Positions 1 to 23,451 of a stretch of 64,000 nt of DNA are shown here, one piece after another. The DNA comes from a virus. A program made the translations under genes and the position numbers. Positions within the stretch are counted from its first letter, which is position 1, and every line of letters starts with the position of its first letter. The notes under the pieces were generated by a model. The model had not been told where the DNA came from. It saw nothing but the letters and a program-made list of their open reading frames with translations, and searched no databases. The stretch lies in IMG/VR virus record IMGVR_UViG_3300047284_000202, positions 23,170-87,169 of that record, one strand, 5' to 3'.

Positions 1-9
1 AGAGAATAA

Positions 10-1053
10 ATGAAAACATATACTCAGTTCATTGAAGAGTGTTATGAATATATTCTTGAAGGTGCTTATAACGACGAACATGCACTTAGAAAGACTTGGA
101 ATCACTTCATGGTTCATAAAAAGCACGGTGCTGAAGTAAGACAACATCTAGATGCTGGTGATCATAAAGCAGCACTAGATCATATGAAGTCTGAAGTTGA
201 GAAAGCAAAGTCAGATCCTAAGCATCCACTAAGTTTCGAGAAAGCTAAGAGAGGATTTAAAACTGGTAAGACTGATGCAGATAGAAAGTCATACCATCAA
301 GAGTTAGATAATGCTGTACATGGTGCACATACATTGGCAACTAAAGAAAGAAGAACTGCTAATGCTGCCAAGAAAGGTCTGCCAATGCAGAACACTGGAG
401 CAGGTAAAGCACCAGTAACAGCATCATGGGAAAAGACTGGTGCTAAGAATACAACTCCTAAGAGAGATGTTGAAATCCATGATCCTAAGAATAAGAAGCA
501 TGGTATTGGTATTAGTATGAAGAAACCTGGTGGTTCTCAACTAATGTCAGGTGGTCCAGAGGAAACACATGCAACTATCAAACATGCTGCTAAGAGACAT
601 GCTGCAGAACTAGTTAAGTCTGGTAAATCAAAAGAAGAAGCAGATGTAGCACATAAGGATATTGTCAATAGATCTGAAAGAATTTCATGGTTAGTGAAGG
701 GAATGGAGAAAGGATCTCCCGCAAGAAAGGCAGCAATTAAGCAAGCAGCACAGAGACACATTGACCACATGCATGACAATCATCCTGGACTAGAGAATCA
801 CATCGGCAGTGAGGCATCTAGTGGCAATCAGAAGTTCGGTAAGAGGGTCTCAGCAGGGTCTGGACAGGCATCTGTGGTTCTCAAGGGTGCAGACACCAAG
901 AAGGGTGTGGAGGCAAAGGCACAGGACATCAGCAGAAGAGAACGTGCCCGTGGATTCAAGGGTAAGTTGAGAGCAGCATTACCTAAGAGTGACAAAGTAA
1001 ATCCAAAGACAGGTAAGACTAGATCTGGTAACGTTAAATTAGATGAAAGATGA
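10..1053 (+). CDS. Putative virion internal-head protein with a T4-type capsid-targeting N-terminus and a possible PD-(D/E)xK-like nuclease motif
   Basis: N-terminus MKTYTQFIEE resembles the T4 internal-protein targeting sequence (MKTYQEFIAE). Central TPKRDVEI...GISMKKPGGSQLMSGG segment. Very basic protein. Confidence 0.45.
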   Translation: MKTYTQFIEECYEYILEGAYNDEHALRKTWNHFMVHKKHGAEVRQHLDAGDHKAALDHMKSEVEKAKSDPKHPLSFEKAKRGFKTGKTDADRKSYHQELDNAVHGAHTLATKERRTANAAKKGLPMQNTGAGKAPVTASWEKTGAKNTTPKRDVEIHDPKNKKHGIGISMKKPGGSQLMSGGPEETHATIKHAAKRHAAELVKSGKSKEEADVAHKDIVNRSERISWLVKGMEKGSPARKAAIKQAAQRHIDHMHDNHPGLENHIGSEASSGNQKFGKRVSAGSGQASVVLKGADTKKGVEAKAQDISRRERARGFKGKLRAALPKSDKVNPKTGKTRSGNVKLDER

Positions 1054-1199
1054 TTGATAGGAAAAAATTTACATGTCCTCATTGTGGTGGAGTATTTGGT
1101 ATAGGACCGAAAGGTGAAGCATCTATTTACTCCTATAAAATCTATACCTCTCACGTAAATAATTGTGAGAAGAAACCAAAACAATGTAAAAGTTGCTAA
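1050..1199 (+). CDS. Small zinc-finger-like protein (49 aa), not in the ORF track
   Basis: ATGA overlap with the upstream stop. Translates MIDRKKFTCPHCGG...HVNNCEKKPKQCKSC. Confidence 0.55.
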   Translation: MIDRKKFTCPHCGGVFGIGPKGEASIYSYKIYTSHVNNCEKKPKQCKSC

Positions 1200-1228
1200 C
1201 TAAATATCTCCATAACGGAGGTCTTTTA

Positions 1229-1663
1229 ATGGGTAGTTATGAAAATCCTTGGATGTTTAATTCAGAAGTTTTTGAATCGGATAACATTGAAGATTATTTT
1301 GGTTTTGTTTATCATATCTACTGCACTGCAACTGGTAAGTCGTATATTGGTAGAAAGTATTTCTGGAGTTTCCGCACACCGAAGGGCAAATCTAGAAAGG
1401 TTAAATCAGAGTCTGATTGGAAAAATTATTATGGATCATGTCCCGAACTCAAAACCGATGTTAAACTTTGGGGCAAAGCATCCTGCAACAGAACAATACT
1501 TAGCCTCCATAAAACAAAAGGACAGTGCAACTTCGAAGAAACAAAACAACTCTTCTTGAATAATGTACTGACAGAGGCACTGGAGGATGGAAGTCCTGCC
1601 TACTACAATTCAAATATTCTCGGAAGATACATGCGTAAAGATTACTTTGGGAAGGGGGCTTGA
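1229..1663 (+). CDS. denA: GIY-YIG endonuclease, similar to T4 endonuclease II (DenA)
   Basis: FGFVYHIY...SYIGRK GIY-YIG motif, ESDWKNYYGS and YYNSNI. ATG at 1229 follows a GGAGG RBS. Confidence 0.75.
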   Translation: MGSYENPWMFNSEVFESDNIEDYFGFVYHIYCTATGKSYIGRKYFWSFRTPKGKSRKVKSESDWKNYYGSCPELKTDVKLWGKASCNRTILSLHKTKGQCNFEETKQLFLNNVLTEALEDGSPAYYNSNILGRYMRKDYFGKGA

Positions 1664-1689
1664 CAGGGCAGGCAGGGGTGCTATATAAT
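1660..1689 (+). promoter_or_regulatory. Sigma70-type early promoter
   Basis: TTGACA at 1660-1665 and TATAAT at 1684-1689. Confidence 0.75.
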
Positions 1690-1715
1690 TACTAGGTAAG
1701 CAACGGAGACGACCG

Positions 1716-1874
1716 ATGACTGACAAAGAGATTCAAGATTATTTCTACGATTCTCAAATTTATCAATCTACTGTTGATGAACTAGTCGATAAACTCCATG
1801 AACTTATCTCTCAGGGTGATTTCTGCAAAGCACAATTGGTTGCTGAGACTATCCGAGAGTTGCAATTGGGATAG
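1716..1874 (+). CDS. Small hypothetical protein (52 aa) whose stop codon overlaps the tRNA-Arg 5' end
   Basis: GGAG RBS followed by ATG. Translates MTDKEIQDYFYDSQ...RELQLG*. Confidence 0.55.
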   Translation: MTDKEIQDYFYDSQIYQSTVDELVDKLHELISQGDFCKAQLVAETIRELQLG

Positions 1875-1941
1875 TAGCTCAGTGGAATAGAGCAACTGCC
1901 TTCTAAGCAGTCGGTCGATGGTTCGAATCCATCCTATCTCG
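1868..1941 (+). tRNA. tRNA-Arg(TCT)
   Basis: Cloverleaf with acceptor GGGATAG/CTATCTC, anticodon arm ACTGC-CTTCTAA-GCAGT and T loop GTTCGAATC. Confidence 0.95.
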
Positions 1942-1942
1942 T

Positions 1943-2071
1943 AGTCACGGAGAGACTTAAAAAGTACTGGTGGAGTCAATTTTGACCCTATTATGCCCGT
2001 CACGGATGGACGTTAACAGCACTGGTCGGGAACCCCCCTACGGAGTTTCTAGTTTCTCTCAAAAACTGGTG
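1943..2071 (+). ncRNA. 5' part of a modular structured RNA (manA/wcaG-like cyanophage motif) with repeated hairpin/pseudoknot + UGGU modules
   Basis: GTCACGGA hairpin repeated at 1944 and 1999. TGGT motifs at 1968, 2023 and 2067. Stem GAG/CTC whose loop CTAGTTT pairs with AAACTGG. The family name is recalled, not searched. Confidence 0.6.
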
Positions 2072-2107
2072 TATCCTATATAAATAAATATAGTTATATA
2101 GGATACA
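2070..2107 (+). promoter_or_regulatory. 14-bp hairpin containing a T4 late promoter and sequestering the RBS of the HNH gene
   Basis: TGTATCCTATATAA (2070-2083) pairs perfectly with TTATATAGGATACA (2094-2107). TATAAATA at 2079-2086. AGGA RBS lies in the 3' arm, directly before ATG 2108. Confidence 0.85.
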
Positions 2108-2542
2108 ATGGCAACTAGAGAACAAAAGTTAGAAGCAAAAAGACGCTACTATCAAAAAAATAAAAACAAACTAAACTCAGAATCAAGAGAACTCAATACT
2201 AGATTGAGATATGAAAAGAAAAACTTTATCATAGAATCTCTTGGATCTAAGTGTTGTGAGTGTGGGATTACTGATTGTCTAGAAATAGATCATATCAATC
2301 CTGGATTAAAAAAAGATAGAAGATGTCTTTATGTTTGTTCTTGGGACAGAATCAAAAGTGAAATGGACAACCTCCAACTTCTCTGTAGTGCATGTCACCA
2401 TGAAAGATCTCAACTTCAAAAAGATGCTTCGTGGTTTTATTTTAAAAATCTTCCCCTAGAAGAACAAAATAAAATAATGAAGCAGTTTAAAGAGGGAGGT
2501 TCTAACTTGCCTTCCTGGTCCCCGCAAGATAAGGGACAATAA
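2108..2542 (+). CDS. HNH homing-endonuclease-like protein
   Basis: Basic helical N-terminus followed by KCCECG...LEIDHINP...NLQLLCSACH (Zn-binding HNH). Confidence 0.85.
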   Translation: MATREQKLEAKRRYYQKNKNKLNSESRELNTRLRYEKKNFIIESLGSKCCECGITDCLEIDHINPGLKKDRRCLYVCSWDRIKSEMDNLQLLCSACHHERSQLQKDASWFYFKNLPLEEQNKIMKQFKEGGSNLPSWSPQDKGQ

Positions 2543-2620
2543 AAATTCTTGCTGGTGCGGATGGGACTCTCTCCCGCCTGGTTTCCAATTTCCAGTCAAA
2601 GAATTGGTGGCGAGCCTGGA
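2491..2620 (+). ncRNA. 3' part of the modular structured RNA, overlapping the HNH C-terminal codons
   Basis: Stem GTCCC/GGGAC whose loop GCAAGA pairs with TCTTGC before TGGTG. Hairpin GCGGATGGGA...TCCCGC. Stem CTGG/CCAG whose loop CCAATTT pairs with GAATTGG, running into TGGTGGCG. Confidence 0.6.
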
Positions 2621-2629
2621 ACTTAAGTT

Positions 2630-3073
2630 ATGGAATTCTCTATTGTTGGACAGTACTTGAATCAAAAACAAGCATTTTCTAACCCTGCTTTTTATGCCAT
2701 GATTCGTGTCATATATAAACAGGTGGGAGATAACAAACTTAAGTCCGAAAACTGGTACGAATATTTGTACCCCTCAGGGGAACCTTATAAACAGGAATAT
2801 CATTCTTATGATATAATATCCCCTACAGAAGTTGATTTTCAATCCTATAATATGGACTGGGAACCAACCTGTAAATTTAAGTTCACATGGGATGGGAACT
2901 TCTGGGTTGCTGAACCATGTGGTGAGTGCGTAGTAAAGGATATAAAAATAAACAGTACGGTCAAGTTCAATGATCAGGTTTACATTTCCGAAGATGTAGG
3001 TTATGATCGAACAGGAAACGTAGTGTTTGGTCGAGTGGGAATGCCTTTCATTTTTGATAGGATTCCCATTTGA
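2630..3073 (+). CDS. cpeT: CpeT/CpcT-type phycobilin lyase
   Basis: GQYLNQKQAFSNPAFYAMI...EPYKQ...DVGYDRTGNVVFG...PFIFDR pattern of the T-type lyase beta-barrel. Confidence 0.8.
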   Translation: MEFSIVGQYLNQKQAFSNPAFYAMIRVIYKQVGDNKLKSENWYEYLYPSGEPYKQEYHSYDIISPTEVDFQSYNMDWEPTCKFKFTWDGNFWVAEPCGECVVKDIKINSTVKFNDQVYISEDVGYDRTGNVVFGRVGMPFIFDRIPI

Positions 3074-3078
3074 TTCCT

Positions 3079-3158
3079 GCCCAAGTGGTGAAATTGGTAT
3101 ACACGCTTGACTTAGGATCAAGTGCTTCGGCGTGGAGGTTCGAGTCCTCTCTTGGGTA
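3079..3158 (+). tRNA. tRNA-Leu(TAG)
   Basis: Anticodon arm CTTGA-CTTAGGA-TCAAG, variable arm present, acceptor GCCCAAG/CTTGGGT. Confidence 0.95.
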
Positions 3159-3160
3159 TT

Positions 3161-3232
3161 ACTCTGGTAGTCTATTGGTAAGGACGGGTGGACAACACAC
3201 ATGGAAACTAGGTTCGATTCCTAGACAGAGGA
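3161..3232 (+). ncRNA. Non-canonical tRNA-like RNA
   Basis: Intact T arm CTAGG-TTCGATT-CCTAG and a D-like arm with TGGTAA. The acceptor has two mismatches and the anticodon loop GACAACA lacks U33. Confidence 0.65.
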
Positions 3233-3233
3233 A

Positions 3234-3335
3234 ATAAGGTAAGGAAAGTAAAAGGAGCATGGGAACCGTATGGAGATACCGCACCTGCCTTGTTAACACC
3301 CCTCAAGCCTATCAACGATGCTCAAACAGAGGGGT
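3234..3335 (+). ncRNA. Unassigned structured RNA: two hairpins with loop-loop pairing
   Basis: ATAAGGTAAGG/CCTGCCTTGT, ACCCCTC/GAGGGGT, and cross-pairing GAGCAT (3255-3260) with ATGCTC (3318-3323). Confidence 0.55.
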
Positions 3336-3339
3336 CACT

Positions 3340-3411
3340 GCGGATTTAATTCAGTGGTAGAATGGCTGCCTTCCAAGCAGTTCGTCAGGGGTTCGAATCC
3401 CCTAATCCGCT
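3340..3411 (+). tRNA. tRNA-Gly(TCC)
   Basis: Acceptor GCGGATT/AATCCGC, anticodon loop CTTCCAA. Confidence 0.95.
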
Positions 3412-3426
3412 TGAGTTCTAAACTCT

Positions 3427-3434
3427 TATAAATA
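3427..3434 (+). promoter_or_regulatory. T4-type late promoter
   Basis: TATAAATA, upstream of a 32-codon ORF (3457-3555) and the main tRNA array. Confidence 0.65.
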
Positions 3435-3670
3435 AATTCATTAAAGGTCGAAAATCATGAACACTGCATTTATCCAAGAGCATATTAAGTTTAACGATTA
3501 CCGTTGGTATATCGTGGGAACCCCCTTTTGCGATAAATCAGTAAAACTTATGTAAGACCACTGATACATCAGCAAAACTTAAGGGGGGCAGGTTGCAAAA
3601 CCACCCCCCTTTTGCTATGGTAGATTCATCGGTGGGAGACCCACCAGCACCTCGAAAATTTAAACCTCAT

Positions 3671-3742
3671 GGGTCTGTAACTCAACGGTAGAGTAACGGG
3701 CTTTTAACCTGGAAGTTGTGGGTTCGAGTCCCACCAGACCCA
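3671..3742 (+). tRNA. tRNA-Lys(TTT)
   Basis: Acceptor GGGTCTG/CAGACCC, anticodon loop CTTTTAA. Confidence 0.93.
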
Positions 3743-3745
3743 TAT

Positions 3746-3836
3746 GAGAGAGTGGCTACTGTTGGCAATACGTGTGGCTGCGGTCTGTAAAACCGTTACA
3801 TAAGAACCATCGGGGGTTCAATTCCCTCCTCTCTCA
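3746..3836 (+). tRNA. tRNA-Tyr(GTA) with an enlarged D loop
   Basis: Acceptor GAGAGAG/CTCTCTC, anticodon arm GCGGT-CTGTAAA-ACCGT, long variable region. Confidence 0.85.
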
Positions 3837-3840
3837 CCTT

Positions 3841-3912
3841 GGCCCTATAGTGAAGTGGCTATCACGCATCTCTGTCCAAGATGTATCACGAGTTCGAATC
3901 TCGTTAGGGTCG
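3841..3912 (+). tRNA. tRNA-Asp(GTC)
   Basis: Anticodon arm CATCT-CTGTCCA-AGATG, acceptor GGCCCTA/TAGGGTC. Confidence 0.93.
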
Positions 3913-3954
3913 TTGAGAGTCAGTATTCTAACTCTCACGCATTTCTTAGAGTTT

Positions 3955-4087
3955 GCCAGTGTGTAGAGAAATGTTGTAGCAAGAACTGGAATTGGGGAGG
4001 GATTTCTAACCACCATCGGATGATGGCAGGATTCATAAGGCTACGAAGCGTAATCCGTAAGTAACTTCGTGTGGGATACCCCTCCCA
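3955..4087 (+). ncRNA. Unassigned multi-stem structured RNA between tRNA-Asp and tRNA-Glu
   Basis: Stems CCAGT/ACTGG, GGGAGGG/CCCTCCC, CCATC/GATGG and GGATT/AATCC. Long-range pairings TTGTAGC/GCTACGA and ACGAAG/CTTCGT. Confidence 0.55.
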
Positions 4088-4090
4088 TCT

Positions 4091-4162
4091 GGTCCTATCG
4101 TCTAGTGGTGAGGACATCACTCTTTCACAGTGAAGACACGGGTTCAAATCCCGTTAGGACTA
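4091..4162 (+). tRNA. tRNA-Glu(TTC)
   Basis: Anticodon arm TCACT-CTTTCAC-AGTGA. Confidence 0.93.
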
Positions 4163-4165
4163 TAT

Positions 4166-4241
4166 CGGGGAGTAGCTCAGTTGGTAGAGCACATGTCTGA
4201 AGAACATGGTGTCGGTGGTTCAATTCCACCCTCTTCGACCA
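4166..4241 (+). tRNA. tRNA-Phe(GAA), CCA encoded
   Basis: Anticodon arm CATGT-CTGAAGA-ACATG; ends in ACCA. Confidence 0.93.
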
Positions 4242-4314
4242 GGAAACATAGCTTAGTTGGTAAAGCATTCGACTGATAATCGAAAGAGCACTGGTTCGAG
4301 TCCAGTTGTTTCCA
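4242..4314 (+). tRNA. tRNA-Ile(GAT)
   Basis: Anticodon arm TTCGA-CTGATAA-TCGAA, acceptor GGAAACA/TGTTTCC. Confidence 0.95.
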
Positions 4315-4316
4315 TT

Positions 4317-4399
4317 GGAAGATTGGCAGAGTGGTTAATGCAGAGGTTTGCTAAACCTTGAGGGTCACACCTCCGTTGGTTCGAATCCAACATCTTCCG
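4317..4399 (+). tRNA. tRNA-Ser(GCT)
   Basis: Anticodon arm GAGGT-TTGCTAA-ACCTT, long variable arm, G73 discriminator. Confidence 0.93.
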
Positions 4400-4402
4400 T
4401 TT

Positions 4403-4476
4403 GGCAGTATAGCTCAGTCTGGTAGAGCACGGGTCTCATATTCCTATGGACGGTGGTTCAAATCCATCTACTGTCA
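4403..4476 (+). tRNA. tRNA with CAT anticodon (Met or Ile2) and a weak anticodon stem
   Basis: Acceptor GGCAGTA/TACTGTC and loop CTCATAT. Stem CGGGT/TCCTA has mismatches. Confidence 0.75.
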
Positions 4477-4477
4477 T

Positions 4478-4551
4478 GTGACGTTAGCCTAGTGGTAAGG
4501 CAGTGGTTTGTGGAACCACCTAGATGGGTTCAATTCCCATACGTCACCCCA
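4478..4551 (+). tRNA. tRNA-His(GTG), CCA encoded, no genomic G-1
   Basis: Anticodon arm GTGGT-TTGTGGA-ACCAC, acceptor GTGACGT/ACGTCAC, C73. Confidence 0.92.
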
Positions 4552-4552
4552 T

Positions 4553-4626
4553 TGAGAAATCGTCTAACGGTAGGACACCTCCCTTTGAAGGAGTTTATCT
4601 AGGTTCGAGTCCTAGTTTCTCAGCCA
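4553..4626 (+). tRNA. tRNA-Gln(TTG), CCA encoded
   Basis: Anticodon loop CTTTGAA, acceptor TGAGAAA/TTTCTCA, ends in GCCA. Confidence 0.92.
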
Positions 4627-4701
4627 GTTGGGTTGGTCTAATGGTAAGATGCAGGTCTCCAAAACCTTGCGATGGGGGTTCAAATCCCTCACCCTTCGCC
4701 A
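4627..4701 (+). tRNA. tRNA-Trp(CCA), CCA encoded
   Basis: Anticodon loop CTCCAAA. Acceptor GTTGGGT/ACCCTTC has two U-U mismatches. Confidence 0.85.
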
Positions 4702-4702
4702 T

Positions 4703-4777
4703 CCTCTCTTAGCTCAGTGGATATAGAGCACTTGACTACGGATCAAGGTGTCCTAGGTTCGAATCCTAGAGAGAGGG
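4703..4777 (+). tRNA. tRNA-Arg(ACG)
   Basis: Anticodon arm CTTGA-CTACGGA-TCAAG, acceptor CCTCTCT/AGAGAGG. Confidence 0.93.
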
Positions 4778-4778
4778 C

Positions 4779-4807
4779 TTGACAGACTGCTTCTGGTCTG
4801 TTACTAT
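4779..4807 (+). promoter_or_regulatory. Sigma70-type early promoter
   Basis: TTGACA-17 nt-TACTAT. Confidence 0.75.
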
Positions 4808-4832
4808 ATACTATGTGATCAGGGACAAATTT

Positions 4833-4988
4833 ATGTCACTATTATCAAAACAAGATCGAGACCTAACGGTTGAAGCAATTGAGTTCTATCTTTTTAATAA
4901 AAAGTTTGATCTCTCTGAGGAGAAAATCATGCAACTCAATGCCCTTAGGAACTGGATCCAATTAGAAAATTTTAAGCATGAAAATTAA
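4833..4988 (+). CDS. Small hypothetical protein
   Basis: ATG after a GGA RBS, downstream of the promoter. Confidence 0.6.
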   Translation: MSLLSKQDRDLTVEAIEFYLFNKKFDLSEEKIMQLNALRNWIQLENFKHEN

Positions 4989-5151
4989 TCTCTGGTATTG
5001 TGAAACGATGAAACAATGGAGGTGGACTCTAATTGATGATCATCGTCCAATTGTTAAAATGGAATCTGGTCAACAACCAGATCTTCGAGTAGCAATGAAT
5101 GACATTGCTACTACTGTTGAATATATGTTAGAAAATAGTGGGGAAGTGTAA
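4978..5151 (+). CDS. Small hypothetical protein (57 aa), not in the ORF track
   Basis: Translates MKINLWYCETMKQWRWTL...SGEV*. Its end overlaps the tRNA-Met 5' end. Confidence 0.6.
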   Translation: MKINLWYCETMKQWRWTLIDDHRPIVKMESGQQPDLRVAMNDIATTVEYMLENSGEV

Positions 5152-5211
5152 CGGTTGCACAGAAGTCTCATAAGCTTCAGGTAGATGGTTCAATTCCATC
5201 CCCCGCCACCA
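5137..5211 (+). tRNA. tRNA-Met(CAT) with an initiator-like 1:72 mismatch, CCA encoded
   Basis: Anticodon arm GAAGT-CTCATAA-GCTTC, acceptor AGTGGGG/CCCCGCC with A1:C72. Confidence 0.85.
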
Positions 5212-5217
5212 AATCAT

Positions 5218-5289
5218 TCCCCTATAGCTCAACGGCAGAGCAGAGAGCTGTTAACTCTAAGGTTCCTCGTTCGAATCGAGGTGGGGGAG
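5218..5289 (+). tRNA. tRNA-Asn(GTT)
   Basis: Anticodon loop CTGTTAA, acceptor TCCCCTA/TGGGGGA. Confidence 0.93.
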
Positions 5290-5324
5290 TCCGTGTGAAG
5301 GAAGTGTTAAAGGAGAAGTAAACT

Positions 5325-5672
5325 ATGAATTCAAATAATTTTGAGCAACTTGATTTTAAAAACTTAGAATCAAAATCTAGGTTTGCTTCTCTTTTTCCAA
5401 AAGATATTAAATTCTTAATTAAAGCAGTTGAGAATTTTTCAGTAGGGTCTGATACAGACCCTATTTCTGGATTCAGTGATTCTGTTATGATGAAAGAAAG
5501 AGTTCTTCTTAAACTTGAAGCATATCTAGAACTCTTCGGAGGCAAAGATCCAGAAATGATTGATCCAGAATTTATTAAACATCATATGCCCGATGAATTC
5601 AAACAAAAATATTTTGAACAAATTCAAAATCTTCATCAAAAGCACACTAAGAAATTTCCTGCGAGATACTGA
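5325..5672 (+). CDS. Hypothetical protein
   Basis: ORF with an AAGGAG RBS. Confidence 0.65.
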   Translation: MNSNNFEQLDFKNLESKSRFASLFPKDIKFLIKAVENFSVGSDTDPISGFSDSVMMKERVLLKLEAYLELFGGKDPEMIDPEFIKHHMPDEFKQKYFEQIQNLHQKHTKKFPARY

Positions 5673-5829
5673 TAGTATAAATTCCAGTTCAAGCAGACAG
5701 TGCTCAAAGTGTCATGAGGTGAAACCCCTTGACAGGGACCACTACCAGGTGGTAAAGTACTTTCGTACAGGATTCTCCTACTACTGCAATGAGTGTAGCA
5801 AACCTAAACCCCGTGAAAGTTCTTCTTGA
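5560..5829 (+). CDS. Small zinc-ribbon protein (start uncertain)
   Basis: QCSKCHEVKPL...YYCNEC. Contains an internal promoter, TTGACA at 5729-5734. Confidence 0.5.
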   Translation: MIQNLLNIICPMNSNKNILNKFKIFIKSTLRNFLRDTDSINSSSSRQCSKCHEVKPLDRDHYQVVKYFRTGFSYYCNECSKPKPRESSS

Positions 5830-6052
5830 AAGAGAAGGTTATCGATTTGTAGAAAAAGGTATTCTAGAAATTAATGGTAAACCAGACTTTCGTTTGCAGA
5901 AACAAAACTACTATACCAAACGGTGGTATGACATTTATCTTTTTGATAATGGTATGCAATGCTCTCTAGCAATGGAGGATATTGAATATGCAAAATGGTT
6001 AGATCCTGATCGAGTTCCATGTTACATTAAGGGAGATGACGACGATGAATGA
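5789..6052 (+). CDS. Hypothetical cyanophage protein
   Basis: ORF downstream of the internal promoter, with a WLDPDRVPCY motif. Confidence 0.65.
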   Translation: MSVANLNPVKVLLEREGYRFVEKGILEINGKPDFRLQKQNYYTKRWYDIYLFDNGMQCSLAMEDIEYAKWLDPDRVPCYIKGDDDDE

Positions 6053-6248
6053 TCGTGCTTTGTATCAACTTGAACGTGCTATTGATGCACTTTCACAAAT
6101 GGCAAAATATCTAAGGGAAGAACAGACACCTGTTTCATTTACTGATCTGAGTTCTGGATATAATCATTCTTCTTACTGGTATGATTTTGATCGAAATCAA
6201 CCAATCAATTTTGCTTCTTCTAGTTCTCCTGATGTTATTGTTTTCTAA
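6036..6248 (+). CDS. Hypothetical protein
   Basis: ORF in operon context. Confidence 0.55.
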   Translation: MTTMNDRALYQLERAIDALSQMAKYLREEQTPVSFTDLSSGYNHSSYWYDFDRNQPINFASSSSPDVIVF

Positions 6249-6250
6249 TT

Positions 6251-6496
6251 ATGCTCCGTATCAAAGTCGAACTTGAACCTTTCGGTATGACGATTGGTGG
6301 TAAACAACTTGCAGAGATTCGTATCTGGAATTCCACTGGAAAGGGTCTCACTGCAAAACATAATTATGAATATGAAGTATACGAACCAACTCCTCTGAAT
6401 GGAGAACCTATCATGAAACGTGGTAGTGTGAAAGGTTACGATAGACAGCAACCAGTTCTCAATCTGGTCAAAGAGGTCTTGACAGATTTGGACTGA
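6251..6496 (+). CDS. Hypothetical protein
   Basis: ORF in operon context. Confidence 0.6.
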   Translation: MLRIKVELEPFGMTIGGKQLAEIRIWNSTGKGLTAKHNYEYEVYEPTPLNGEPIMKRGSVKGYDRQQPVLNLVKEVLTDLD

Positions 6497-6508
6497 TCTC
6501 TATATAAT
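6479..6508 (+). promoter_or_regulatory. Sigma70-type promoter for hli-petF
   Basis: TTGACA at 6479-6484 and TATAAT at 6503-6508. Confidence 0.75.
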
Positions 6509-6530
6509 ACAGTCTGTTAAAAAACTTAAC

Positions 6531-6749
6531 ATGACCACAACGACTAATGAATTTGGCCAACAAAACATGTTTGCCAAAGAACCAACAATGTACATTTCTG
6601 AAGAGGTAATTGAAGCTATGGATAACGGTGTATACGAAACTCACAACGAAAAAGCAGAACGTCTGAATGGTCGTCTTGCCATGATTGGATTTGTTGCTGC
6701 TGTCGGTGCATATCTAATGACTGGTCAGATTATTCCTGGGATTCTCTGA
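6531..6749 (+). CDS. hli: High-light-inducible protein
   Basis: AERLNGRLAMIGF chlorophyll-binding motif and TGQIIPG tail. Confidence 0.95.
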   Translation: MTTTTNEFGQQNMFAKEPTMYISEEVIEAMDNGVYETHNEKAERLNGRLAMIGFVAAVGAYLMTGQIIPGIL

Positions 6750-6762
6750 CATTCGATTGACA

Positions 6763-6849
6763 ATGACAGAACTCTTATTTACAATGACTAGTGTTGCCTT
6801 CTTTGTATTGTTGGCAGCATCCGTAGAAAAACTTTGTGAAACTTACTAA
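6763..6849 (+). CDS. 28-aa single-helix membrane microprotein, not in the ORF track
   Basis: [28 protein letters not shown]; TAATG overlap with the petF start. Confidence 0.55.
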
Positions 6850-7139
6850 TGACCTATCAAATTACTCTTCGTTCCCCTGATGGAACCGAACAAACTATTC
6901 AGTGTGCTGAGGATCAATACATTCTCGAAGCAGCAGAAGAAGCAGGAGTAGATCTTCCTTCGTCATGTAAAGCTGGTGCCTGCTCTGCTTGTGCTGGCAA
7001 ACTGATTGAAGGTGAAGTTGATAACGAGGAGCAATCGTTCCTTGATGATGATCAAATGGCAGATGGATGGGTGCTTACCTGTGTAGCATATCCTAAATCT
7101 GATTGTGTAATTCTAACCGAACAGGAAGAGAATCTGTGA
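6849..7139 (+). CDS. petF: Plant-type [2Fe-2S] ferredoxin
   Basis: [14 protein letters not shown]...VLTCVAYP. Confidence 0.95.
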
Positions 7140-7297
7140 TTACAACTGGAGATATGTTAGGGCAATTTAGTCTTGCCCTTCAACAACTTATAGAAGAAGG
7201 TATCTGGGATAAAGACGACGAACTAGAAGTCAAAGTCGCAGGTACGTTAAAGAAAGATAAATTCATTGTCATTCAGAATAAAACCAAGAGGGGGTGA
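7136..7297 (+). CDS. Small hypothetical protein
   Basis: GTGA overlap with the petF stop; followed by a hairpin and U-tract. Confidence 0.5.
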
Positions 7298-7309
7298 CCC
7301 CTCTTTTTT
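7285..7309 (+). terminator. Rho-independent terminator
   Basis: AAGAGGGG-GTGA-CCCCTCTT followed by a T run. Confidence 0.8.
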
Positions 7310-7323
7310 CTTGTCCAGCCCCC

Positions 7324-7357
7324 TTGACAGGGTTTCCTGACCGTGCTATTATAAATA
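7324..7357 (+). promoter_or_regulatory. Overlapping early (sigma70) and late (gp55-type) promoters of psbA
   Basis: TTGACA-17 nt-TATTAT (7324-7352), with TATAAATA at 7350-7357. Confidence 0.8.
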
Positions 7358-7419
7358 AATGTTAAGGGATGGAAACATTCTTTAATAATTTATTCCCCCA
7401 ATTACTCGGAGTATTATCT

Positions 7420-8499
7420 ATGGTTGCTACTATTGCTCAACGTAGGCAAGAAAGCACATGGGAACAGTTCTGTGAGTGGGTAACATCAACCGATAACCGT
7501 CTTTATGTCGGTTGGTTCGGAGTCCTGATGATTCCTTGCCTGCTTGCTGCTACTATCTGTTTCATTGTTGCTTTTATTGCTGCACCTCCCGTCGATATTG
7601 ACGGTATCCGTGAACCTGTTGCTGGTTCACTCATGTACGGAAACAACATTATCTCTGGTGCTGTTGTTCCCTCGTCTAATGCTATTGGACTGCACTTTTA
7701 TCCCATTTGGGAAGCACTTAGCCTCGATGAGTGGCTATATAATGGTGGACCATTCCAACTGGTCGTCTTCCATTTTCTAATTGGTATCTATGCCTACATG
7801 GGTCGTGAATGGGAACTATCTTACCGACTGGGTATGCGTCCTTGGATTTGTGTTGCCTACTCTGCACCCGTTGCTGCTGCTAGCGCAGTGTTTCTGGTCT
7901 ATCCCTTCGGTCAAGGATCCTTCTCTGATGCAATGCCTCTGGGGATTTCGGGAACTTTCAACTACATGCTTGTTTTCCAGGCAGAACACAACATTCTCAT
8001 GCATCCTTTCCACATGCTGGGAGTTGCTGGGGTCTTCGGTGGTTCTCTTTTCTCTGCTATGCACGGATCTCTTGTCACCTCTAGTCTTGTACGTGAGACT
8101 ACAGAAACTGAATCCCAAAACTACGGATACAAGTTTGGACAAGAAGAAGAGACCTACAACATTGTCGCAGCTCATGGATACTTTGGACGACTCATTTTCC
8201 AGTATGCAAGCTTCAACAACAGTCGCAGTCTTCACTTTTTCCTTGCTGCTTGGCCTGTTGTTGGTATTTGGTTTACTGCTCTTGGTGTTAGCACTATGGC
8301 ATTCAACTTGAATGGTTTCAACTTTAACCAGTCGATCGTTGATAGTCAGAACCGTGTGATTCCTACTTGGGCAGACATCCTGAACCGTGGTGGTCTGGGT
8401 ATGGAAGTGATGCATGAACGTAATGCTCACAACTTCCCTCTTGACCTTGCTGCTGCTGATATGACTCCTGTAGCACTCACAGCACCTGCAATCGGTTGA
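7420..8499 (+). CDS. psbA: Photosystem II reaction-centre protein D1, with no intron
   Basis: Full D1 sequence ([14 protein letters not shown]...[13 protein letters not shown]). ATG at 7420 follows GGAG. Confidence 0.99.
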
Positions 8500-22779: not shown

Positions 22780-23451
22780 TTAAATATAATTCTCAGTGAT
22801 ACTTGTTGGAGTTAGTGGAACATCATCATATTCATCCTTTCTCTTATCATATGCAACAAGTTTTTCAAATTCAGAAATGAATTGACCCAAGTATTGTTTC
22901 TTAAGTAGGAAGATATCTCTTTTCTTCTCATTCTCAGAAACTAGATATTCGTAGTTTGTAACTGCTGTTCTTACAGCATTTCCAGTAAGAAGTATTCCTG
23001 TGGTTGGATGTCGATATGTAAAATCGTGATTGACAATCAGACCACCTTCTAATATCTCAATACCATTATTAGTTGTTATTTGTACAGTTTCATAATGATG
23101 AACAGAATTCAACTCATCTAAATTTTTGAATCTCTTTTGTGCGTAGTTGTATAATTCAGATGAACTTAATGGCCATTGATCATACACATCAGTAATATTG
23201 TTGCATAGTAAGATAACCCACTCATAGGCAGCATCTCCATAATACTCGTATGCAATTTGATATGGCTTTTCACCGTCACCAATTTGGATAGGAGTGAATA
23301 CTAAATATTCTTTCTGTAGATTGTTTACTAGAGCAACGTTTCTAAAGATATTTTTGGCAAGTACATATGGCTGATCAATACCCTTTGCTGGACCCATTCG
23401 GACCCAAACATCAGGTAATTGAGAAAAGTAGAAATTATTGAGAATTGCCAT
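22780..23451 (-). CDS. gp53: Baseplate wedge protein
   Basis: YFSQLP, GEKPYQIAYEYYGD...WVILLCNNI...QWP, HHYET. Confidence 0.9.
   Translation of the reverse strand: MAILNNFYFSQLPDVWVRMGPAKGIDQPYVLAKNIFRNVALVNNLQKEYLVFTPIQIGDGEKPYQIAYEYYGDAAYEWVILLCNNITDVYDQWPLSSSELYNYAQKRFKNLDELNSVHHYETVQITTNNGIEILEGGLIVNHDFTYRHPTTGILLTGNAVRTAVTNYEYLVSENEKKRDIFLLKKQYLGQFISEFEKLVAYDKRKDEYDDVPLTPTSITENYI

Follow-up and report, generated by a model that had tools for sequence, protein, structure and literature searches.

We analysed a stretch of 64,000 nucleotides (nt), hereafter the window, which spans positions 23,170 to 87,169 of an 87-kb viral contig in IMG/VR (IMGVR_UViG_3300047284_000202). The contig comes from a T4-like cyanophage, is about 47% complete, and has near-identical DNA in freshwater and lake metagenomes from several studies. 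Our subject is a cassette with a gene for an HNH nuclease that lies within a series of RNA units ending in wcaG, a structured RNA family of Rfam. Downstream of an early promoter, the order is a 52-codon open reading frame (ORF), a tRNA-Arg gene, a non-coding stretch, the HNH ORF, wcaG, a cpeT-like gene and a tRNA-Leu gene (Table 1). One transcript from this promoter probably covers the small ORF, tRNA-Arg, the RNA units, the cassette, wcaG and cpeT; there was no terminator-like site in 1500-3200 of the window, and the ATG of the cpeT-like gene is 9 nt downstream of the wcaG end.

Table 1. Features of the locus around the HNH cassette, in coordinates of the window
Feature	Coordinates	Strand	Remarks
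Sigma-70-type early promoter	1660..1689	+	12/12 consensus letters
tRNA-Arg (anticodon UCU)	1867..1942	+	3' end abuts module A
Non-coding RNA half upstream of the HNH ORF	1943..2071	+	three units without an Rfam entry
Module A ('alpha')	1943..1988	+	hairpin 1943-1957, A-rich spacer, UGGUG 1968-1972, small hairpin
Module B ('beta')	1996..2038	+	hairpin 1998-2012, spacer, UGGUC 2023-2027, G-run/C-run mini-hairpin
Orphaned first wcaG unit (P1) of the recipient	2043..2071	+	aligns to wcaG P1 in loci L001, L003, L004 and L015
Cassette 5' hairpin, 14 bp	2070..2107	+	-15.9 kcal/mol, z-score -4.96
Cassette-specific DNA	2072..2552	+	missing from HNH-free alleles; insert of about 483 nt
HNH endonuclease gene, 144 amino acids	2108..2542	+	PHROG HNH families, E 1e-15
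Complete wcaG RNA (Rfam RF01761)	2516..2621	+	79.9 bits (cut-off 42), model positions 1-98
P1', the cassette's own first wcaG unit, an H-type pseudoknot	2518..2557	+	compensatory changes, 10 copies
CpeT-like gene (phycobiliprotein lyase family)	2630..3073	+	Pfam CpeT 38.3 bits (cut-off 21)

The anatomy of the cassette can be read directly from alleles that lack it. In three syntenic viral loci (L015-L017), a GIY-YIG gene, the small ORF, tRNA-Arg, modules A and B, wcaG (87.6-90.6 bits) and a cpeT gene 77% identical to that of the window follow one another without interruption, and the two halves of the array are also contiguous in the Synechococcus phages DSL-LC03, S-RIM4 and S-B64. In these HNH-free phages, P1, the first hairpin of wcaG, corresponds to the hairpin that closes the upstream half in the window. 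In blastn comparisons, the homology of L015 to the window ended at 2031 and resumed from 2553, and 2072-2618 of the window matched the cassette-bearing loci L006, L007, L009 and L010 at 88.5-92.3% identity. These boundaries give an insert of about 483 nt, longer than the approximately 420 nt of an earlier interpretation made from the letters alone (the sequence-only reading), which had rightly seen an array split by a cassette. A TG on either side leaves the breakpoint uncertain by 2 nt. The insert follows the P1 arm and the leading two letters of a UGGUG, and precedes a full UGGUG at 2553. The site that the sequence-only reading took for a third UGGUG at 2067-2071 has these letters, but they are the end of the P1 arm plus the two letters (2070-2071) that are left of the post-P1 UGGUG of HNH-free alleles.

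Independently assembled contigs from other studies bridge both junctions (X3, covering 1940-2582 with 1 difference, and X4, covering 1619-2214), and the arrangement is therefore not a mis-assembly. An X3 DNA contig joins 2037 to 2549 through 28 other letters, which is the HNH-free form; the contig matches at 85% likeness with a shorter side of just 28 letters, and it could belong to a related phage. Contigs from RNA libraries match the window without a difference over 2164-2345, 2249-2412 and 2429-2578, and a further one matches with one difference over 2589-2727, although such libraries can hold DNA. There was no joint across the cassette among the RNA-library contigs, which, being contigs only, are uninformative either way.

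Although P1 is stranded upstream, wcaG itself is whole, because the cassette supplies a first unit of its own, P1'. Only the longer array is interrupted, which had not been foreseen. The outer stem of P1' (2518-2522/2533-2537) and its inner stem (2524-2529/2547-2552) are followed by UGGUG at 2553-2557, and the unit is encoded by the last 8 sense codons of the nuclease gene, the stop codon, which lies within the last loop (2540-2542), and 10 nt beyond. An RNA within the 3' end of the ORF had thus been recognised correctly, with the difference that the overlap, from 2516-2518 on, amounts to 8 sense codons plus the stop and not to about 16 codons. Among the 10 cassette copies, the outer stem changed from C-G to G-C in 4 by way of two amino-acid replacements (Ser to Cys and Gly to Ala), and the inner stem changed from G-C to A-U in 3 and to a wobble pair in 1. 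In L013 the wobble creates a stop 5 codons early while the pairing is kept. The P1' stems, like the protein, are under selection. Since pairing-preserving changes alter residues, and since the last 8 residues are predicted to be disordered, the RNA and not the protein constrains the C-terminal tail of the nuclease. Some HNH-free wcaG copies have a first unit of the same pseudoknot type (e.g. L071, L137, L018 and L020), so P1' is a natural variant of the unit rather than a makeshift.

The same boundary is occupied elsewhere. The nuclease was found at 79-95% identity in 9 other viral contigs, always at this unit boundary, with wcaG (55.7-82.1 bits) starting about 24 nt before the nuclease stop codon in 9/9. 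The left junction lies 0-2 nt past an orphan P1 of locus-specific sequence in 6 of the 9, or 7 of 10 with the window. The 1.5-kb flanks of the window have nothing in common with the other occupied loci, which share upstream genes in part and differ downstream. A second neighbourhood, in which a 65-amino-acid gene precedes wcaG, is occupied in L005, L009, L010 and L012 and empty at the same breakpoint in L023, L032, L041, L042, L079, L083, L088, L097 and L099, and a third with empty-site alleles consists of a membrane-protein gene, module A and wcaG. The cassette therefore occupies at least three neighbourhoods, each with empty-site alleles. All insertion points that were seen lie between units, and no unit is broken. 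In L006 (about 2985-3000) and L007 (about 3420-3435), some 11 nt before the cassette resemble the P1' loop at its far end and form an imperfect direct repeat.

The gene of the window (lineage 1, at 80% identity or more) was absent from all 120 loci that had been retrieved by their module A (L018-L137), among which L084 and L091 have a relative at 38-40% identity and L034, L035, L058, L060, L089, L109, L120, L121, L134 and L136 have weak HNH matches at 28-36%. A tblastn search of 50,697 GenBank phage records found no cyanophage homologue, just distant HNH genes of other phages at 28-40% identity. The gene is thus rare and patchy, missing as it is from the module-A loci and the GenBank cyanophages, and the latter result fits a sporadic element. 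A profile search retrieved 26 loci with relatives at 34% identity or more, and in 24 of them a unit of the RNA family overlaps or touches the 3' end of the ORF; these 24 include the 9 contigs above and L147, and many of the loci are near-duplicates, so that independent events are few. Three HNH lineages with 34-44% identity to one another all sit at unit boundaries: besides that of the window, there is a lineage of 147-171 amino acids whose stop lies inside module B or module A, and one of 128 amino acids that stops right ahead of module B, or ahead of the 3' half of a P1' in the case of L154. The HNH relatives in L153 and L163 have no RNA unit, and by eye no unit was seen in the 8 that were inspected of 17 distant loci (L164-L180).

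A few other arrangements were observed around these genes. In L154 (1465-1941), the 128-amino-acid HNH gene of the other lineage is followed by the 3' half of a lineage-1 P1' and a full wcaG, which points to recombination between cassettes. Genes that do not encode nucleases also end within the first RNA module, with the stop in the A-rich spacer (L011, L082 and L043), and second-lineage HNH genes have the same few terminal residues, as if they had been fused to the tail of the displaced gene. After the 65-amino-acid gene of L136, all that is left of wcaG is the 3' unit, which is what recombination between the nearly identical hairpins P1 and P3 would produce.

The inserted ORF had been read as an HNH nuclease, and its PHROG matches and invariant residues support this. 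It has the motifs CxxC...DH...N...CxxCH, with the catalytic His/Asn/His of the beta-beta-alpha-metal motif and two CxxC zinc pairs; C49, C52, D61, H62, N64, N88, C93, C96 and H97 do not vary among 10 homologues with identities as low as 38%. The HNH endonuclease of PDB 5h0m matched at E 0.0016, and the nearest annotated relatives in other phages are labelled HNH homing endonucleases. The ratio of nonsynonymous to synonymous substitution rates was 0.06-0.18 in 15 pairs, by which measure the gene is under purifying selection. The AlphaFold2 model had a mean confidence score (pLDDT) of 80.6, and residues 137-144 scored below 50, hence the predicted disorder of the tail.

The start of the cassette carries signals of its own. 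A late-promoter motif, TATAAATA (2079-2086), occupies the 5' arm and loop of the 5' hairpin, and a ribosome site, AGGA (2100-2103), is found in the 3' arm, 4 nt upstream of the ATG. A hairpin of this kind, with ATAAATA in its loop but arms of unrelated sequence, is also found before the gene in four other HNH lineages (z-score -3.65 to -6.0). In phage T4, the e, soc and I-TevI genes have translational masks with a nested late promoter, and the late transcripts are without the 5' arm. The design here is the same, with the ribosome site paired in the hairpin and the late promoter TATAAATA inside, and it is known in this case from sequence, folding and conservation across five nuclease lineages.

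The array into which the cassette is set is built of repeated units, as the sequence-only reading had proposed. It starts directly 3' of tRNA-Arg, and all six of its UGGU(G/C) sites (1968, 2023, 2067, 2516, 2553 and 2605) are located as described. The number of such sites is unremarkable, since TGGTS is common throughout the genome (502 in the window, mostly in coding DNA, compared to 262 in shuffles); thus the evidence for the motif is its conservation and not its count. The proposed link to wcaG was correct in that the downstream half is a complete wcaG, which in the model alignment has three hairpins linked by the conserved stretches UGGUGCGGAUGGG and GUGGCGAGCC. P2 lies at about 2562-2578, and the 3' unit has an outer stem at 2578-2581/2592-2595 and the P3 stem at 2585-2590/2602-2607. 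Among 101 wcaG homologues, the P3 stem was paired in 96% and the P1 stem in 83%, and the sequence preceding each GUUUC pairs with the loop of the next hairpin. The outer helix of the 3' unit had 92.7% of its cells paired, with two-sided changes in all 4 pairs; that of the 5' unit had 80% paired, with pair types GC 35 / AU 19 and AU 42 / GU 23 / GC 15. The observed covariation score was reached by 0 of 500 shuffles in the counts of both units and slid partners scored far lower, figures that are not to be taken as probabilities because the sequences are related by descent. The structure line of Rfam wcaG printed by cmscan has three plain hairpins, whereas both hairpin units here covary as H-type pseudoknots. 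The three pairings quoted in the sequence-only reading are real stems; with short outer stems added, they make up H-type pseudoknots whose pairing covaries among homologues. A plain-hairpin interpretation of the three was dropped after covariation had been found in P1' and in both wcaG units.

Modules A and B are absent from Rfam 15, and no Rfam family matched 1943-2071; this and the other covariance-model searches covered 1-8000 of the window at E up to 10. The module A core pattern has more than 120 matches in IMG/VR viral contigs. Both modules consist of a 4-5-bp hairpin with a 7-nt loop in which GG is invariant, an A-rich spacer, UGGU(G/C) and a small G/C hairpin. Aligned as two separate classes by spacer length, they have a contact between loop position 2 and the spacer base 4 nt before UGGU, which is paired in 75/75 (CG 57, UA 18) and 36/36 (CG 23, UA 13) distinct sequences; sequences of the long-spacer class have a second contact in 36/36, between loop position 5 and the next spacer base (GC 19, AU 16, UA 1). 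The hairpin stem was imposed by the selection of sequences and is no evidence, but the loop-spacer pairs were not imposed. In the orphan P1, GAG (2043-2045) pairs with CUC (2056-2058), and the P1 stem is 2049-2054/2064-2069. Folding of single sequences gave no thermodynamic signal for 1943-2072 (z-score +0.81) or P1' (-0.76), and the structural case is therefore one of covariation. On that footing, the predicted picture of a chain of units, each an H-type pseudoknot that ends beside UGGU(G/C), holds. The loops of the module hairpins (xCGGAxx with GG invariant, in 1943-2040 of the window and homologues) resemble GGA loop sites of the CsrA type; no CsrA gene (PF02599) was found in the 87-kb contig, itself about 47% complete.

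We consider it probable, from these comparisons of sequence, that the cassette is a free-standing HNH homing-endonuclease gene which is specialised on wcaG-family RNA genes and is tolerated thanks to its position between units. One of the two proposals of the sequence-only reading had been that a homing endonuclease settled in a modular RNA without splicing, and the alleles in which the halves are joined, the breakpoint after P1 and the recurrence of the same boundary in other neighbourhoods argue for it. For cleavage, homing, the timing of expression and the history of the cassette, we infer the following. During co-infection, the nuclease would cut HNH-free wcaG DNA, and the cassette would be copied during repair along with the wcaG core next to it. 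With the conserved wcaG sequence as its target, the element may find sites at several loci and in many phages. An insertion that falls between self-contained units would spare the RNA without splicing; P1' would re-form a complete wcaG downstream, and the recipient's P1 would be stranded as an orphan upstream. By analogy with T4, the hairpin would bury the ribosome site, so that early read-through transcripts remain untranslated and late transcripts that start inside the hairpin are translated.

Several observations weigh against this reading. The conserved right half of the presumed target (UGGUGCGGAUGGG) still adjoins the gene, and because of this, immunity to self-cleavage would depend on the altered letters to its 5' side. 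At HNH-free junctions the commonest form of these letters is GCAAG (31 of 79), compared to CTTGC or CTTGT in the cassette. The repeats of RNA units could shift the cassette by plain homologous recombination with no action of the nuclease. The arrangement is not always kept, in that the orphan P1 is truncated in L009 and L010 and there is none in L006 and L007. In L147 (1483-1960), an HNH gene of 70% identity has an orphan P1 upstream, P1' and P2 are lost, and the wcaG 3' unit alone follows the stop. Because the other occupied loci share upstream parts, independent insertion events are few and uncertain. For the protein, Pfam HNH (PF01844) gave 21.3 bits, 0.1 bit short of the cut-off of 21.4, and Foldseek against PDB had no match at E 0.001 or better, with mostly HNH nucleases (Cap5, T5 SciA, GVE2 HNH, Gme HNH and McrA) among the best rows.

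The main competitor of the homing reading is that the HNH gene is a passenger and its nuclease idle, the combination of HNH gene and wcaG being moved by repeat-mediated recombination like the PeSLs of T4-type phages, which are reportedly promoter-terminator cassettes. The RNA units recur and resemble one another, and P1 can be almost the same as P3. The reduction of wcaG to the P3 unit in L136 is what recombination between units would give, and the HNH gene of another lineage that is joined to half of a P1' in L154 would follow from such exchange. A terminator-plus-promoter cassette of PeSL type also comes after many wcaG copies (see below). Nevertheless, we find a mere passenger improbable, since three HNH lineages have all come to lie at unit boundaries, the protein is under strong purifying selection, its nearest annotated relatives are called homing endonucleases, and the regulatory design of T4 homing-nuclease genes is present. 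The two explanations are not exclusive, in that a cut would merely stimulate the same recombination.

A functional unit of RNA and protein, the other proposal of the sequence-only reading, would be a guided or activated nuclease of the type of IscB with its omega RNA (HEARO), or a gene with the RNA as its cis-regulator. We regard it as very unlikely, even if the ORF 3' end meets an RNA unit in nearly all of the relative loci and the HNH domain weakly matches an IscB structure (9k2z, E 0.51). The IscB type has a protein of several hundred residues with RuvC and HNH, and an adjacent HEARO RNA; the 144 residues here form an HNH domain alone without RuvC, and neither HEARO nor manA, both of which had been considered earlier, gave a covariance-model match in 1-8000 of the window at E up to 10. 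Arrays of wcaG are far commoner without the gene, and the relatives in L153 and L163 do without a unit. The meeting of gene end and unit is a general habit of the arrays, because non-nuclease genes overlap units too (L011 and L082). A mobile intron, that is, a self-splicing element with an HNH gene that is removed from the RNA, scarcely deserves credence. The cassette does lie inside an RNA gene, and HNH genes within phage group I introns are known, e.g. I-HmuI of SPO1, but no intron family was matched in the same 1-8000 stretch at E up to 10, and with 435 of about 483 nt taken up by the ORF, the remaining 48 nt or so leave no room for a ribozyme core. Besides, a late promoter and a substitute unit of its own would be needless for an element that is spliced out.

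Compared with known systems, the putative homing cassette is closest to the free-standing homing endonuclease genes of T4-type phages, such as the seg and mob genes and F-CphI, which reportedly lies beside the psbA intron of cyanophage S-PM2. It has in common with them a small nuclease, a patchy distribution, alleles with and without the gene at one set point of a conserved target, late expression signals and no intron. However, its target is a structured non-coding RNA gene and not a protein gene or intron site, and the cassette, with a nuclease activity that is putative here, carries a structural replacement for the part that it displaces. In this respect it resembles the integrative elements that target genes of tRNA and transfer-messenger RNA (tmRNA) and carry a replacement gene end: a mobile element sits in a structured RNA gene which is restored by the element's own copy. 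Those elements use integrases and duplicate the same sequence, whereas here there is a nuclease gene, and the substitute unit differs in sequence and is of a variant fold type.

Homing endonuclease genes usually persist in essential genes by hiding in introns or inteins. For the nuclease gene described here, the refuge appears to be a structured RNA gene, in which it sits between units and to which it adds a spare one; this is a different route to harmlessness. No paper that links a nuclease gene to wcaG was found in full-text literature searches (wcaG RNA or manA RNA; wcaG with homing endonuclease or cyanophage), which did not cover supplements. We tentatively extend the reading, as a possibility that we take seriously without expecting it, to a family of tandem H-type pseudoknot units that includes modules A and B and has wcaG as its terminal pair; these would form multi-unit RNAs that are set free beside tRNAs or where early transcripts end, and at least three HNH lineages, each with an ORF that stops within a unit or right ahead of one, would have specialised on homing to the unit boundaries. 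If this is true, they would be the first intron-less homing endonucleases that live in a structured non-coding RNA gene, tolerated through between-unit insertion and a substitute unit. The present and absent alleles amount to a natural insertion experiment showing which parts of wcaG act as independent units. Combined with the covariation, they recast wcaG as a pair of pseudoknots that closes a longer chain, and this offers better constructs for work on the structure and binding of an RNA that has been an orphan since 2010. For phage biology, the cassette provides a candidate site-specific nuclease with a conserved, multi-copy target.

The wcaG motif is presented as an orphan riboswitch candidate by Weinberg et al. 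2010 (PMC2864571), whose entry on the family places it in T4-like cyanophages ahead of photosynthesis-related genes. The wcaG of the window is in the same kind of setting, ahead of the cpeT-like gene, and here as in many relatives it is the last part of a longer chain of units. In the passages of later papers that name it, wcaG is merely listed (PMC9964418 and PMC12197685), and it goes unmentioned in a 2026 preprint about manA RNA cages. Within about 110 nt after wcaG, a terminator hairpin was found in 47 of 87 distinct copies (loci L018-L137, e.g. L021, L034 and L068), with a -35 box in its loop and TATAAT 17 nt further on, i.e. a PeSL-like terminator-promoter cassette. Where such a cassette follows, wcaG closes a transcription unit rather than leading the next gene; there is none after wcaG in the window. 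A terminator and a fresh promoter after wcaG sit oddly with a simple riboswitch in a 5' untranslated region.

Other features of the neighbourhood were recorded in passing. A SegE-like GIY-YIG endonuclease gene lies at 1193-1663 of the window (Pfam SegE_GIY-YIG, E 1.3e-51), 200 nt upstream of tRNA-Arg, and it is not part of the HNH insertion because the HNH-free loci L015-L017 have a GIY-YIG gene too. Downstream, 2 nt past tRNA-Leu, there is a tRNA-like sequence (3161-3232) that scored 28.1 bits against the Rfam tRNA cut-off of 29 and had no ARAGORN call. At 3746-3838, ARAGORN called a tRNA-Arg(GCG) with an unusual length of 93 nt, perhaps due to a long variable arm, and the best Rfam match there was tRNA-Sec (29.8 bits, cut-off 47). 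A match to the abiF RNA (RF03085; 50.7 bits, cut-off 37) is located at 3299-3335, between a degenerate tRNA-like element and tRNA-Gly, and recurs in L015-L017 at 3662-3698. For the phage S-CREM1, the list of RNAs in the S-CREM1 paper likewise has abiF, wcaG and manA within one region.

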